Below are positions 36,111-42,933 of a stretch of 42,933 nucleotides of DNA, one piece after another. The stretch is taken from NCBI GenBank assembly GCA_043823965.1, contig JBDRTP010000313.1, positions 1 through 42,933 on the forward strand, read 5' to 3'. Below the pieces are notes generated by a model. That model ran no database searches. It was not told the DNA's origin and saw only the letters and a list, made by a program, of their open reading frames with translations. The position numbers and the translations under genes are program-made. The DNA comes from Chloroflexota bacterium (GTDB lineage: Bacteria; Chloroflexota; Anaerolineae; Anaerolineales; Villigracilaceae). How positions within the stretch are numbered: the stretch's first letter is position 1; each line of letters starts with the position of its first letter.

Positions 36111-36159
36111 TGATCAGTGATCAGTGTTCAGTATTCAGTTACCAGTAGCCAGTGAGCAG
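36111..36159. repeat. Seven-unit heptamer (TNNNCAG) tandem repeat, intergenic
   Basis: TGATCAG TGATCAG TGTTCAG TATTCAG TTACCAG TAGCCAG TGAGCAG, starting directly after the folD stop. Confidence 0.9.
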
Positions 36160-39428: not shown

Positions 39429-39467
39429 CAGTTCAAACCATCAAAGAAAAGCCAGTCCGAACAACAA

Positions 39468-39582
39468 CCCCCGCCGTAGACTCACCCCACAGTTGTGCTT
39501 CGCCCCTCGCGCGGACCCGCACCCCCGCCCTCCAGCGGACACAATCCCCCTCGTCGTGGACTCGTCTCACAGGCGTGCTTCG
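39468..39582. repeat. GC-rich P-family repeat, copy 1 (with internal sub-repeats)
   Basis: The core GGACCCGCACCCCCGCCCTCCAGCGGACACAATCCCC (39513-39549) matches 40776-40812 with 1 mismatch. The sub-repeat CCCCCGCCG.GGACTC....CAC.....GTGCTTC occurs at 39468-39501 and 39546-39581. Confidence 0.85.
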
Positions 39583-39674: not shown

Positions 39675-40025
39675 CTAGCTCGCAGGAACGTAAACATTTC
39701 TATGTGGGTTTGAGATTATTGTGTTTCTCTCAGCACGGTTACTCACAGTAAAAGTTTTGCTGATAGAAGTGCTCGTTGTCGCCAACTCTGCTGGGGCAGG
39801 CACAGACAAGCCATCTTGAAGGAGGCTTTCAACAAAATCAACCACCGCCAGACGCAAATCCTTTACAGCGGCTTCTGGCGTTTCGCCTTGGCCAAAACAG
39901 CCATCCAATTCCAGCACGTGTGCAAGATAAATTGGCTGGTCATCGGTAGTTTCATCGCGCGTTACTTTGATGAAATAGGGACGACTTGCCAGTTCTTGCG
40001 CCTGCTTGTTTAGTGTATCACTCAT
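39675..40025 (-). CDS. hicB: HicB-family antitoxin
   Basis: PIYLAHVLELDGCFGQGETPEAAVKDLRLAVVDFVESLLQDG is the HicB/UPF0150 core. A 4-nt overlap with hicA. Confidence 0.8.
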   Translation of the reverse strand: MSDTLNKQAQELASRPYFIKVTRDETTDDQPIYLAHVLELDGCFGQGETPEAAVKDLRLAVVDFVESLLQDGLSVPAPAELATTSTSISKTFTVSNRAERNTIISNPHRNVYVPAS

Positions 40026-40282
40026 GATCTGCCTTCTTTCTGTAATTCTAAAATCCTGTCTATTAATTTTACCGCAAATTCAACATATCCTTTGGCGAGT
40101 TCCCGATGTCTCGGTAATGTTGTGCGCAGTTCTGGATAATTTGGATGTTTCACAATATCATGGTTGCCGCCATGTGTAATGACAAACCCAAAACCTTCAT
40201 AAAGCTTATCAAGGTCAGCTCTTTTCCAATTGGACTTTGACCTGCGCATTTGTTCCAAGAGCTTCTCTGCTTTGGAGGGCAT
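40022..40282 (-). CDS. hicA: HicA-family mRNA interferase toxin
   Basis: 86 aa. W..ADLDKLYEGFGFVITHGGNHDIVKHP is YcfA/HicA-like (conserved G..GSH-type region). Confidence 0.75.
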   Translation of the reverse strand: MPSKAEKLLEQMRRSKSNWKRADLDKLYEGFGFVITHGGNHDIVKHPNYPELRTTLPRHRELAKGYVEFAVKLIDRILELQKEGRS

Positions 40283-40286
40283 GACG

Positions 40287-40703
40287 TTACTCTTGAGCAG
40301 AAATTGGTGCTTCGAGTTTGTTAGCGTAAAGGGTCAAATCCCCTTTGTGGTCTTTATCAACTAGAATGACAAATTGATAAATACCTGGCTTTGGAAAAAC
40401 GACATCCTTTAGGTCGAGAATGATGTTAACCTCAGGCTTTCTGCCTTTTTCGCCCTTAGGCACTTCAAATTGCCCTGAAATGTCCATGATGGAATTACCA
40501 TCGGCATCCAGTAGTTTGACCGTGAAATCTCGGATTTGCCCATACTCGCCGAGCTCTGCGCCGAGTTTGGCAACCAAGTGCATGGACGGATGCCTGGCTG
40601 GGAAACTGAACGCGTTAATATCGTTGAATATCCCCATCACATTCAGTTTTCCATCGCCAGTGATGTTTGCATAATCAGCGGCTAAAAGAAGCAGTTGTTT
40701 CAT
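40287..40703 (-). CDS. Hypothetical protein, first gene of the hicAB operon
   Basis: 138-aa ORF preceded by GGAGG and a TATAAT (reverse complement of 40741-40746). It ends 4 nt before the hicA start. The N-terminus LLLAADYANITGDGKLNVMGIF recalls an uncharacterised family (possibly DUF6941; uncertain). Confidence 0.55.
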   Translation of the reverse strand: MKQLLLLAADYANITGDGKLNVMGIFNDINAFSFPARHPSMHLVAKLGAELGEYGQIRDFTVKLLDADGNSIMDISGQFEVPKGEKGRKPEVNIILDLKDVVFPKPGIYQFVILVDKDHKGDLTLYANKLEAPISAQE

Positions 40704-40763
40704 AAATCATTCCTCCGTTTATGCCTTCATGGGCAAATCTATTATAGCAGGTTCTCGTTTGCT

Positions 40764-40841
40764 CCCCCCGCCGTGGACCCGCACCCCCGCCATCCAGCGG
40801 ACACAATCCCCCCGCCGCGGACTCGCACCACGCGTGCTTCA
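40764..40841. repeat. GC-rich P-family repeat, copy 2
   Basis: CCCCCCGCCGTGGACCCGCACCCCCGCCATCCAGCGGACACAATCCCCCCGCCGCGGACTCGCACCACGCGTGCTTC. Confidence 0.85.
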
Positions 40842-40854
40842 GCCGTCTTCGTAA

Positions 40855-40883
40855 AATAGAAAAACCCCGCTGTGAGGCGGGAT
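40855..40883 (-). terminator. Probable terminator of the three-gene operon
   Basis: On the minus strand, CCCGC-ctcaca-GCGGG followed by GTTTTTCTATTTT. Confidence 0.5.
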
Positions 40884-40909
40884 TTTGTAAACATCAATTT
40901 TAGCGAAAA

Positions 40910-41305
40910 CTAATGACTATGTGCTATTTCATCAAGGTATTGGAAGATAATCTTTGCCATGCTAATTGCATAGGTAGCGATGTTTTCAGGTTTTTGTTTT
41001 AACAGATCGTCGTAATCAACTTGCCGACGAAAATCATAAAGACGATCTAATTGGGTGGCAATCTTTCTTCTCCTCTGGTCTACAGGCGCAGAGTTACGGA
41101 AATATTCTCTAATTTTTCTATGATCGTCACCCGTAAAAGTTGGGCTAAACTTCTCGGCTCTTCCAAACTGAAAGGCTACTTGAAAGGCAGCATAATATGC
41201 CCGACTCGTTGCCGCACGAAGTGCAGCCTCTGTAGGGCCAGGCATATTTGGATTTGCTGAAAGTCCTTCAGCAAGTGTCAGGTAGTCTTTCCAGTTAAAA
41301 CTCAT
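40910..41305 (-). CDS. HEPN-like small protein (third gene of an AT-rich operon)
   Basis: 131 aa. W.DYLTLAEGL...ALRAATSRAYYAAFQ and LDRLYDFRRQVDYDD resemble a minimal HEPN domain with an R-x4-Y/H-type motif. Eye-level similarity only. Confidence 0.5.
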   Translation of the reverse strand: MSFNWKDYLTLAEGLSANPNMPGPTEAALRAATSRAYYAAFQVAFQFGRAEKFSPTFTGDDHRKIREYFRNSAPVDQRRRKIATQLDRLYDFRRQVDYDDLLKQKPENIATYAISMAKIIFQYLDEIAHSH

Positions 41306-41949
41306 ACAGATTCAAGACTGAAGTTTAATAAATCTCCGACCCAATTAACTTGCTTTAGAAACCACGCCTCGTCGAAAGCATCAAGGGAGGCCAATGCCTC
41401 CGATGGAGATAGTTTAGTCGAAACATAAGCAAAAAGCTTTTTAGAATTTGAACTTTCTAAATCTGAAACTAATTCCATCGCAATTTCTGTCGCACCAAAG
41501 AAATTTTCAAGCACTTCTTTGGCCTCAAAAAGTAGTTGCATCAAGTTAGGATGCTTTACTAGAAATGCTTTCACTTCAAGCGCGTTCCTCAATGTATACA
41601 TTGTTTCAACTCTCGCAATTTTTGCGCTTTGAATTACCTCACGCATAAATTTATCTTGCTCTAGTGGATTGCCATGTGGTTCTTGGTATCGGTGAACCCA
41701 ATTCCTTATCCAATGAACATGAATCCATTCATCAAGATTCCCCCAAGTTAAAGTGTCTTTGCCCTTCCAGCGATATGCAAATGTTTGGTGATAAGTCTCA
41801 TTCCAAACAGAAGCACCTAAGACATCCACAATCTTATTTTCTATATTTGATAGGCCAGTTGCCTGCTTTGGAATCGAAAAGTCTGCCCCAATATTTTGTC
41901 TGAAGACGTCCCATCCGGTGAATTGTGTAGAGAGGTTAGGATTTAGCAT
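41302..41949 (-). CDS. Hypothetical protein (second gene of the operon)
   Basis: 215-aa ORF whose stop overlaps the HEPN-like gene start (ATGA). Trp-rich N-half, and an acidic helical C-half ending DAFDEAWFLKQ. I recognise no family. Confidence 0.55.
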   Translation of the reverse strand: MLNPNLSTQFTGWDVFRQNIGADFSIPKQATGLSNIENKIVDVLGASVWNETYHQTFAYRWKGKDTLTWGNLDEWIHVHWIRNWVHRYQEPHGNPLEQDKFMREVIQSAKIARVETMYTLRNALEVKAFLVKHPNLMQLLFEAKEVLENFFGATEIAMELVSDLESSNSKKLFAYVSTKLSPSEALASLDAFDEAWFLKQVNWVGDLLNFSLESV

Positions 41950-41962
41950 GGCACTCGTATGG

Positions 41963-42598
41963 TTAGGAAGTCAGGAATCTCATTAATGTGGATGTAAGGC
42001 GCTCAAATTGCTGCATATAAGAGCGTTTTAAACCATCTGAGTCAGGTAAACTTAAACCTTTGGATTCAAAATGTGAATTCAAATGAACTTTCATGTGTTG
42101 ATCGTCGAGCGGTTCGAAAATGATGTCGTAACGAATATCCTCAGATTGAAAAACCAGGCGTGGCATAAAAGAGATTAACTTCCCACATAACTCTGCCTCA
42201 ATTTGTGCTTGATCTTTTATGAACTTGTTATTTAAAACCTCTTGGGCAGTGTTTTCATCAAAGCGGACACTTACATCAAAGTTATATCCATATGCAATCA
42301 GTACTGATTTTTCTGGTGGAAGGAGTTCGTTTACCTTTATGGCATATTCCCACAAAGGAAACTCACCCAATTCAGGTGTTTCAATAGGTAAATTAATACG
42401 AATCCGCCTGTCGCCAACCTGAACAAACCATGGATTGGGAGGATAAACCGCAACAATCATTTCAGGAGTGTCCATAATTGTGGGTTGGGAATCAACTGCT
42501 AAATTTCTGAGTTTGTTTCTGTCTATTGTTTGGAGATCTAGGGCGTCGTATACAATCGTTATGTTTCGCCCAATGACAGCCTCTAGTTGAGGAGACAC
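41963..42598 (-). CDS. Hypothetical protein (first gene of the operon)
   Basis: 211-aa ORF with a GTG start preceded by AAGAGGTGA and a TGTATAAT box. I recognise no family. Confidence 0.55.
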   Translation of the reverse strand: MSPQLEAVIGRNITIVYDALDLQTIDRNKLRNLAVDSQPTIMDTPEMIVAVYPPNPWFVQVGDRRIRINLPIETPELGEFPLWEYAIKVNELLPPEKSVLIAYGYNFDVSVRFDENTAQEVLNNKFIKDQAQIEAELCGKLISFMPRLVFQSEDIRYDIIFEPLDDQHMKVHLNSHFESKGLSLPDSDGLKRSYMQQFERLTSTLMRFLTS

Positions 42599-42635
42599 AA
42601 ATCACCTCTTTATTTCTTATTATGGATATGACACA

Positions 42636-42643
42636 ATTATACA
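42636..42643 (-). promoter_or_regulatory. Extended -10 box TGTATAAT for the three-gene operon
   Basis: The reverse complement of ATTATACA at 42636-42643, about 38 nt upstream of the GTG start. Confidence 0.5.
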
Positions 42644-42703: not shown

Positions 42704-42730
42704 TACACGGATTGCACGGATTACATGGAT
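42704..42730. repeat. Three-unit 9-mer tandem repeat
   Basis: TACACGGAT TGCACGGAT TACATGGAT. An inverted partner AAATCCGTG lies at 42767-42775. Confidence 0.85.
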
Positions 42731-42933
42731 TTTCACCGAGTAGGCCTTCGGCAGAAAAATCCCTAAAAATCCGTGTTTTTTCCGTGCTTGTCCGGTGCGC
42801 CAGGATAAGCCTGGCTGTTCTAGTAAGTTGAAAGGTACTTGCCATGTGAATTTCTCGTAACACATGTAGTCGACCGAGCGCAGGATGGAGTAATCCATTT
42901 CAGCGAAGCCTTGGAAGACAAAGACGCAAGCCG

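Follow-up and report, generated by a model that had tools for sequence, protein, structure and literature searches.

In toxin–antitoxin–chaperone (TAC) systems, a SecB-like chaperone recognizes an aromatic pattern in the antitoxin ChAD, a phage protein competes for that site, and both the chaperones and the toxin–antitoxin warheads are interchangeable (bioRxiv 10.1101/2024.02.24.581848). RnlA-RnlB and LsoA-LsoB likewise act against phage (PMC3710099, PMC8266594), and HEPN-T genes cluster with restriction-modification operons (PMC3710099). HEPN toxins, tripartite toxin–antitoxin systems and the swapping of toxins are known as such. Here we describe a three-gene operon, A-B-C, at the end of a 42,933-nt contig of a Chloroflexota bacterium (Anaerolineales, Villigracilaceae; NCBI GenBank assembly GCA_043823965.1, contig JBDRTP010000313.1), the whole of which is referred to below as the window. 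Two protein families, those of A and B, appear from sequence comparison to be new, as does their joining to a HEPN protein of UPF0332 type (C) without a minimal nucleotidyltransferase (MNT) partner; literature searches for a third component resembling TATA-binding protein (TBP), for UPF0332 together with HEPN, and for DUF5678 in toxin–antitoxin systems found no prior description. With a probability of about one half, we regard the trio as a horizontally mobile tripartite module of toxin–antitoxin type, probably serving abortive infection or defense, and as a TAC analogue with a new helper fold.

The three genes are minus-strand open reading frames (ORFs) that the ORF listing places within the last 2 kb of the window:

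41963..42598, minus strand: gene A, ORF with a GTG start, 211 aa
41302..41949, minus strand: gene B, ORF, 215 aa
40910..41305, minus strand: gene C, ORF, 131 aa

The gap between A and B is 13 nt, and B shares 4 nt (ATGA) with C. The first-pass annotation of this DNA, made from the sequence alone, had given the same lengths, gap and overlap, and the ORF listing agrees with it exactly. B and C are adjacent and translationally coupled, and match the order of generic type II toxin–antitoxin pairs, in which an acidic protein is encoded upstream of a basic one. The ORFs are evidently real genes rather than chance ORFs, because they have homologues at E 1e-40 to 1e-138 and because the gene order is kept in dozens of independent contigs.

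The closest described design is that of the TAC systems (HigBAC, CmdTAC and the M. tuberculosis TAC), which also consist of three genes and join one conserved accessory protein to interchangeable toxin–antitoxin pairs. In both, the antitoxin (here the putative antitoxin B) has an additional aromatic, disordered segment, and the holding of this segment by the accessory protein, which has been shown in TAC, is proposed here. TAC acts in phage defense, and A modules have been found near defense genes. The differences are as follows. The accessory protein has a SecB fold in TAC, whereas A had no SecB match in Pfam and is predicted to form a TBP-like double repeat and has no family assignment. A is encoded first, whereas the TAC accessory protein is encoded last, and the putative handle is N-terminal in B but C-terminal in the TAC antitoxin. 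As putative toxins, the A operons carry HEPN and PIN proteins, among others. The relation to TAC is one of analogy, not membership.

Homologues of the three proteins (38 close homologues of A, 13 of B and 70 of C) all came from metagenomes or metagenome-assembled genomes (MAGs), and the named hosts are Chloroflexota (Anaerolineae and Ardenticatenia). On the contigs carrying A homologues, a succession of genes of 211 aa, 174–215 aa and 129–137 aa recurs in unrelated surroundings. Four loci only were found in a scan of GTDB representative genomes, three in Chloroflexota and one in Woesearchaeota, while a metagenome scan added 76 further loci and reached members with 24–31% identity. A set of 100 sequences, representing 66 non-redundant loci, was re-annotated using an ORF walker and hidden Markov models (HMMs); individual loci are cited below by number (L021, for example). 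Wherever the DNA suffices, A is nearly always the first gene and is followed by two tight genes on the same strand, with spacings mostly between -29 and +23 nt (L073 has a gap of 257 nt). At least 21 complete, non-redundant A-B-HEPN trios were present in differing genomic contexts, which answers the question, raised with the first-pass annotation, of whether the three genes co-occur elsewhere. Across 21 trios the pairwise-distance correlation was 0.87 for A-B, 0.69 for A-C and 0.71 for B-C; by this measure of sequence divergence, A and B are the tightest co-evolving pair.

The second and third genes of the A operons fell into the following types:

Majority (at least 21 non-redundant loci): gene 2 B-type, 195–225 aa; gene 3 HEPN; B and C HMMs positive
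L021, L085-L094, L098/99: gene 2 acidic, 92–102 aa; gene 3 PIN, 157–187 aa
L020/L074, L073: gene 2 151–160 aa; gene 3 PIN, ~198 aa
L076, L077, L046, L023: gene 2 carries DUF5678 (E 1e-8, 9e-6, 7e-4); gene 3 143–155 aa
L071, L078: gene 2 168–245 aa; gene 3 HicA-like, 94–101 aa, weak match (E 0.004 and 0.08)

The Pfam PIN family was matched above threshold by the third genes of L088, L093 and L098 (E 4e-8 to 8e-10) and of L020 (4.8e-5), and below threshold by that of L073 (7.7e-4). The third gene of L021, for which Pfam called no PIN domain and the PDB gave no sequence match, looks homologous by eye to the PIN genes of L088, L093 and L098. DTG/DSG retropepsin-like motifs were seen in the third genes of L046, L076 and L077, with a weak Pfam hint. 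One accessory family thus occurs with different toxins, of which the HEPN and PIN types are supported by Pfam and the retropepsin-like and HicA-like types by weak or motif-level matches. The PIN-type trios have the same acidic/basic charge pattern as the B-HEPN trios. As a whole, these comparisons indicate that A is the constant part of the operon and that genes 2 and 3 are exchangeable, so that A, and not the HEPN gene, would define the system. The remote A members that precede a small acidic protein and a PIN gene, or a HicA-like gene, resemble VapBC and HicAB; however, the classical versions of these consist of two genes and do not begin with an A-type gene, and the middle genes of the remote A operons match no VapB or HicB family. 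In L020 (7073-7698, Anaerolineae MAG DAOUDK010000030.1), the PIN gene is split across two frames by either a frameshift or an assembly error; it is intact in L073.

B, the middle protein, is acidic (pI 4.7) and had no family match in Pfam, NCBIfam, PADLOC or PHROGs. In its AlphaFold2 model, residues 1–70 have a predicted local distance difference test score (pLDDT) below 50, residues 110–215 have a pLDDT of 79–94, and the C-terminal domain is predicted with high pLDDT as alpha-alpha-beta-beta-alpha-beta, a fold with no significant PDB match. Two modules can be delimited:

41710..41838, minus strand: B N-terminal module, residues 38–80, with the aromatic motif YRWKGKDTLTWGNLDEW, defined by invariant or near-invariant columns
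41305..41598, minus strand: B C-terminal alpha/beta domain, residues 118–215, AlphaFold2, high pLDDT

The consensus of the N-terminal motif is YRWKGxDTLTWGNxDEW. An HMM of the N-terminal module scored 55.9 bits in the middle protein of L046, which has a DUF5678 C-terminus in place of the B C-terminal module and a non-HEPN third gene, and 9.3 bits in that of L023, compared with a maximum of 5.2 among 1180 shuffles. Conversely, the HMM of the C-terminal module scored 88.5 bits in the middle protein of L065 and 54.9 bits in that of L079, both of which are without the N-terminal motif and are followed by a HEPN gene. Every complete operon with a strong C-module score, L065 and L079 included, has a HEPN third gene. 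These data support a modular B, in which the N-terminal module appears to track A and the C-terminal module the HEPN toxin. In the first-pass annotation the C-terminal half of B had been described as a small helical module of antitoxin type; the comparative evidence favors an antitoxin-type module, but one that is predicted to be alpha/beta and not purely helical.

A stretch of B (FFGxD...LELVxDPE...LFGYI) was considered as a degenerate MNT and rejected, as its predicted structure is a beta-hairpin whose strands are not linked through a helix, and as it has no nucleotidyltransferase (NTase) or PDB match; judged by the model, B is not a nucleotidyltransferase. Neither A nor B has the topology of an NTase or matched NTP_transf_2 or another NTase family in Pfam or NCBIfam, while a true HEPN+MNT pair in L007 was recognized normally. 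The lack of the usual MNT partner, remarked on in the first-pass annotation, is borne out by this comparative evidence.

C showed a match to Pfam HEPN (PF05168) of 17 bits (E 0.0066), which is below the 22-bit cut-off, and the same family was matched by 29 of 61 relatives of C at E<=0.01 (best 5.8e-7). When the profile of these 61 relatives was compared to the PDB, the entry 9xbd_A (“HEPN domain-containing protein”) was matched at E 4.5e-8, and weaker matches were obtained to the HEPN protein of Retron-Kva2 (0.0095) and to AF0298 (2hsb; 0.21). Relatives of C are labeled “UPF0332 family” by the Joint Genome Institute (JGI). The residues invariant among the 61 sequences are E26, R30, S34-R35-A36-Y37-Y38, H62, R93, D97 and Y98. 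E26 and R30 supply the acidic motif of HEPN helix 2, E-x3-[KR]; the canonical Rx4-6H motif is not present, as the corresponding sequence, R93-R-Q-V-D97-Y98, contains no His, its R, D and Y being invariant. The proposal in the first-pass annotation that the last gene is HEPN-like therefore held, although its motif is R-x3-D-Y with an upstream His and not the canonical one. AF0298-like HEPN-T proteins have E-x3-[KR] but no His in Rx4-6H, where D often takes its place, and a second conserved His located upstream has been proposed as an alternative catalytic residue (Anantharaman et al. 2013, PMC3710099). By its E-x3-R, upstream His and R-x3-D-Y, C can be assigned to the AF0298/UPF0332 (HEPN-T) type of HEPN protein, and H62 is proposed as the counterpart of the alternative catalytic His. 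C is basic (pI 9.2; family median ~9.0). Over its full length it also matches phrog_5176, a family of unknown function, at E 1e-11, so that phage genomes encode close relatives of C-type HEPN proteins, though no relatives of A were found in GenBank phages.

C belongs to the same HEPN-T/UPF0332 branch as the toxin of the type VII HEPN-MNT systems, with which it shares E-x3-R, the upstream His and the Rx4-6H basic residue without its His. In contrast to these systems, no minimal nucleotidyltransferase is adjacent to C. Since the trio contains no MNT, neutralization of C by AMPylation is not expected, unless A has an unrecognized activity.

A had no match in Pfam, NCBIfam, PADLOC, PHROGs or PDB sequences; a relation to TIGR04255 or another NCBIfam family was considered and found no match. 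For A and B, the first-pass annotation had named no family, and the searches agree, with no placement of either protein in a housekeeping family. An exhaustive profile search of 1.84 billion representatives collected 247 clusters of the A family at E<=1e-3, whose members are all standalone proteins of ~200–220 aa. No relatives of A were found in IMG/VR, GenBank phages or PLSDB plasmids. The AlphaFold2 model of A (pLDDT 93.7) has the topology 2 x (S1-H1-S2-S3-S4-S5-H2), which is that of TBP, and in Foldseek the first match was archaeal TBP (1ais_A; E 2.2e-4, probability 0.99), with a template modeling (TM) score of only 0.29–0.39. AdoMetDC and CYTH-like enzymes were also among the matches, the top PDB entries being TBP and AdoMetDC. 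A is thus predicted to be a TBP-like double repeat and not a member of the TBP family. Of the residues of A, G104 and N106 do not vary among 120 diverse members of the broad family, and conservation is at least 90% at N12, R65, N174 and H176. The conserved polar residues alternate along beta strands (N12/T14, D63/R65, N106/D108 and H172-N174-H176) and, in the model, would line the helix-free face of the sheet. With a median pI of 5.1 and a net charge of ~-8, the family is acidic, and this favors a role in binding proteins over one in binding nucleic acids. An unnamed viral protein, A0A515MGR4 (202 aa; Foldseek BFVD), aligned with A over its full length at TM 0.71–0.74 and E 8.6e-10, with a root-mean-square deviation of 3.8 Å and 12% identity; it could be a phage-borne homologue of A or a decoy.

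The predicted fold of A, together with a HEPN protein and a separate protein antitoxin, recalls RnlA-RnlB and LsoA-LsoB, which also combine TBP-like domains, a HEPN RNase and an antitoxin. The trio might accordingly be read as a split RNase of the RnlA/LsoA kind, with A as its RNA-binding half, C as its catalytic HEPN and B as an RnlB-like antitoxin. RnlA has the architecture TBP1-TBP2-HEPN, in which TBP1 is needed for substrate binding (PMC8266594), TBP-like fusions were noted in the RNase LS family by Anantharaman et al. (PMC3710099), and A has two TBP-like repeats. In RnlA, however, the TBP-like and HEPN parts are fused and the Rx4-6H motif is canonical, whereas the trio encodes them as separate genes with B between them, and C falls in the HEPN-T/AF0298 branch and not in that of RNase LS. 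A is acidic, which is poorly suited to RNA binding, and RnlA was not among the listed top 50 Foldseek matches of A. Moreover, A also heads operons with non-HEPN partners, including a retropepsin-like or PIN third gene, and the conserved motif that is associated with A resides in B and not in C. We consider a split RNase improbable.

The same features of A could instead belong to an enzyme or small-molecule sensor, which would either introduce a modification into B or C (Tyr98 of C being one possible site, in the manner of the MNT in type VII) or make or sense a nucleotide signal, so that the toxin is under chemical control. A is unusually well conserved, and the alternation of invariant polar residues along its beta strands has the look of an active site; the Foldseek listing includes AdoMetDC and CYTH-like enzymes. 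Tyr98 of C is invariant, the usual MNT is missing, and at this position the alignment shows a Tyr-to-Phe difference between the two related PDB entries 9xbd and 9xbc. Nevertheless, A has no sequence or fold match at a meaningful TM score to nucleotidyltransferases or any other enzyme family, and a single modification is hard to reconcile with one A family serving unrelated third genes (PIN, HicA-like and retropepsin-like). On balance, we think it unlikely that A acts in this way.

The signals upstream of the operon bear on whether A acts at its own promoter. The sites read from the sequence are:

42636..42643 (TATAAT 42641..42636), minus strand: promoter -10 element TGTATAAT
42602..42610, minus strand: Shine-Dalgarno sequence AAGAGGTGA, strong, 4 nt before the GTG of A
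40861..40886, minus strand: intrinsic terminator AAAATCCCGCCTCACAGCGGGGTTTT with a T-run; 10-bp stem, loop of 6, T-rich tail

The -10 element lies 38 nt 5′ of the GTG of gene A, a convincing -35 is absent, and a consensus scan for sigma-70 called no promoter at this site. Ten of 20 non-redundant related loci have the same 8-mer 35–45 nt 5′ of A. The 8-mer is therefore a conserved feature of the module, with the promoter moving together with the genes. GGAG/GAGG-type sites occur in the related loci at the position equivalent to the Shine-Dalgarno sequence. Of the promoter and terminator that the first-pass annotation had assigned to the trio, the terminator is confirmed by its 10-bp GC stem and T-run, and the promoter in part, by the conserved -10 element. 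Approximately 60 nt upstream of the -10 box, at 42705-42731 on the minus strand, there are three tandem 9-nt units, AATCCATGT AATCCGTGC AATCCGTGT, which could be an operator or an iteron and are not conserved in the related loci inspected.

In omega-epsilon-zeta and paaR-paaA-parE, the order of genes is also accessory, antitoxin and toxin, and the antitoxin has no DNA-binding domain. The accessory proteins of these systems are small basic DNA-binding repressors, of ribbon-helix-helix (RHH) or helix-turn-helix (HTH) type, that are not known to contact the antitoxin. By comparison, A may be a transcriptional regulator of a three-component system, like omega or PaaR, that places a TBP-like saddle on the promoter, with B and C forming an ordinary antitoxin–toxin pair that has no DNA-binding domain of its own. 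The TBP fold is a DNA-binding fold, A is first in its operon, as is omega, HTH and RHH domains are missing from both A and B, and the module has a promoter element that is conserved and moves with it, with the 3 x 9-nt tandem repeat (42705..42731) located upstream. On the other hand, A is a 211-aa protein whose acidity (pI 5.1, charge ~-8) is unlike that of DNA-binding TBP-type domains, and the -10 box is the only conserved upstream element; the interval from this box to the Shine-Dalgarno sequence shows no dyad or operator common to the loci. A also co-varies with the motif of B: the retention of this N-terminal motif with A across toxin types, together with the tightest co-evolution being that of A and B, points to a protein–protein contact. 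These considerations led us to regard a regulator as an unlikely identity for A.

In the TAC-like reading that we prefer, C would be a small basic HEPN RNase toxin acting via R93, the upstream H62 and E26-x3-R30. B would be an acidic two-module antitoxin or adaptor, whose C-terminal alpha/beta domain binds and neutralizes the HEPN protein and whose disordered, aromatic N-terminal segment is a handle held by A. A would be a conserved acidic hub with a polar beta-sheet face (N12, R65, N106, N174 and H176). The charges of the three proteins (B pI ~4.7, C ~9.0 and A ~5.1) fit a toxin–antitoxin pair plus a protein-binding helper. While A is bound to B, the antitoxin would be stabilized or licensed; when A is occupied or removed, B would be lost or released and the RNase freed, leading to cell arrest. 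Candidate triggers are a phage component or a failure of supply. The data show the gene structure, the conserved operon, the HEPN homology and motifs, the predicted fold of A, the modular B, the exchanged toxins, the charge pattern and the genomic neighbors, whereas the protein–protein contacts, the RNase activity, the toxicity and the trigger are inferred.

Several points weigh against this mechanism. The A-B and B-C contacts are deduced from the co-variation of modules and not from a model of the complex. The middle genes of the remote subtypes show no detectable N-terminal motif of B (those of L020 and L021 were not significant against the B profile in hhalign), so that the association of the motif with A is carried mainly by L046 and L023. 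The global TM scores of A to solved structures are low, at 0.29–0.43, and its TBP-like assignment comes from topology and Foldseek probability. C lacks the His of the canonical Rx4-6H, which makes RNase activity less certain than for classical HEPN toxins. A is encoded first, like the regulators of omega-epsilon-zeta systems, and by that analogy a regulatory role is possible. About half of the long loci have housekeeping neighbors only (for example PFL, radical SAM and aminotransferase genes). Finally, L016 (SRR11548473), which has the same strain-level sequence as the window, carries in B an E51K change and a nonsense change (CAA-to-TAA) at Q55, with one synonymous change in A and an identical C. 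In this sequence a 114-aa ORF from M102 (B 102–215) keeps the whole C-terminal domain, and L016 fits the mechanism only if this fragment is produced, the module is in decay or the assembly is wrong. The variant may represent a true loss of function or an error in the assembly of a single run, and neither supports nor refutes the mechanism.

Defense genes were found within the flanks of 9 of ~17 long loci; they are of restriction-modification, BREX or PLD-helicase type:

L001: SNF2 helicase and a 1785-aa N6_Mtase/Eco57I protein
L004: PLD-SNF2 and MmeI-type methylase; DUF6941-hicAB beside the trio, as in the window
L005: N6_Mtase/Eco57I and REase-ARP
L020: HsdR and an IS630-type transposase
L058: BrxA
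L065: UvrD-like helicase and PLD nuclease
L080 and L092: type III-like methylase; in L080 additionally ResIII helicase
L089: type IIG Eco57I/MmeI/TaqI_C enzyme

L007, in addition, is located in a stretch rich in toxin–antitoxin genes. No match at E<=1 was obtained in PADLOC-DB 2.0 for A, B, C or the product of the neighboring DUF6941 gene. In two loci of different subtypes, L080 (2620-3642; divergent HEPN type) and L086 (2577-3641; PIN type), a gene for a ClpP-like serine protease of SDH type (Pfam E ~1e-13) lies ~360 nt upstream of A; a dedicated protease at this place might play a part in the turnover of the antitoxin.

The neighborhoods also bear on whether the operon takes part in conflict at all, since it might encode a small accessory complex for RNA processing or stress that is mobile by chance. 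The long loci with housekeeping neighbors, the missing canonical HEPN His of C and the retention of an intact C in the B-nonsense variant L016 are what such a complex would allow. The distribution, however, is patchy and mostly confined to Chloroflexota, with flanks that differ per genome and an atypical GC content, the third gene is swapped among classical toxin domains within an acidic/basic pair, and restriction-modification or BREX neighbors are frequent. We therefore hold a non-conflict function to be very unlikely.

The composition of the locus is consistent with its acquisition from elsewhere. GC content is 0.37–0.44 over the trio, compared with 0.60–0.69 at 37.4–38.8 kb (DEAD-box helicase region), in agreement with the AT-richness reported in the first-pass annotation. 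The AT-rich block starts at ~39.6 kb, reaches the end of the window and contains DUF6941-hicA-hicB as well. The position of this block of ~40% GC in a host genome of ~62–65% GC, and at a contig end in all assemblies, suggests that the trio was horizontally acquired. The window contains 335 nt of DNA 5′ of A, and all four other assemblies of the same strain (L014-L017) break within about that stretch, which points to the presence of a repeat or of a junction that varies between strains. The first-pass proposal of a horizontally acquired three-component HEPN system is thus supported: profile searches returned no housekeeping family for the proteins, the trio recurs in other contexts, and the HEPN assignment of C stands.

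A tentative extension of the TAC-like reading, which we consider possible but would not favor, is that the A proteins, with their TBP-like fold, are hubs or sensors of a new class and define a hyper-modular tripartite superfamily with HEPN, PIN, HicA-like and retropepsin-like warheads; the polar face of A would hold an aromatic, degron-like antitoxin segment, and a phage product would compete for this face and thereby set off abortive infection. If the TAC-like reading is true, the operon would be a second, independent design of this kind, in which one accessory protein of unrelated fold gates many warheads. It would also mean that HEPN proteins of UPF0332/AF0298 type can be controlled without an MNT nucleotidyltransferase, give the TBP-like fold a function in bacterial conflict systems, and add a candidate defense system from Chloroflexota and uncultured lineages, which are poorly sampled by defense catalogues. 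The natural toxin swaps, in which warheads are exchanged and A is kept, are a ready experimental design. In practice, the family is rare, the organisms are uncultured and the support so far comes from comparative genomics.

Apart from the trio, the window contains repeated elements. The trio terminator is a member of a five-copy hairpin family (D1), with near-identical, AAAAACCCCGCCGTGAGGCGGG-like copies at 36155, 37564, 38983, 39629 and 40860. These copies stand 3′ of successive genes, in core and island DNA alike. A GC-rich repeat at 39503-39550 and 40765-40812 is 90% identical across 48 nt, within larger blocks at ~39460-39580 and ~40760-40840, and includes the sub-repeat G(A/G)GTCC(A/G)CG(A/G)CG(A/G)GGGG. 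Each of its copies is located just 3′ of a terminator and just 5′ of a TATAAT/TATACT box that belongs to the next gene (DUF6941-hicAB in one case and an RRM protein in the other). The copies were considered as remnants of tRNA 3′-ends (island att sites) and rejected, with no tRNA or tmRNA in the window and no Rfam match; they were likewise rejected as a structured RNA or attC-like site, as their folding energy was no better than that of shuffled sequences (z = 0.5).

A hicAB pair adjoins the trio 200 nt downstream, with Pfam matches to HicA_toxin (E 1.6e-7) and HicB_lk_antitox (E 1.2e-5), as the first-pass annotation had recognized. Together with a neighboring DUF6941 gene (Pfam E 1.6e-30), it occupies 39675-40703 on the minus strand in the order DUF6941 (138 aa), hicA (86 aa) and hicB (116 aa), with a 4-nt gap followed by a 4-nt overlap. 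DUF6941 was considered as a half-size relative of A and rejected (hhalign probability 0.2%); it may be a third component of the hicAB system. DUF6941-hicA-hicB is also found directly upstream of the trio in L004 (6467-7514), which makes at least two contexts where the two modules travel together.

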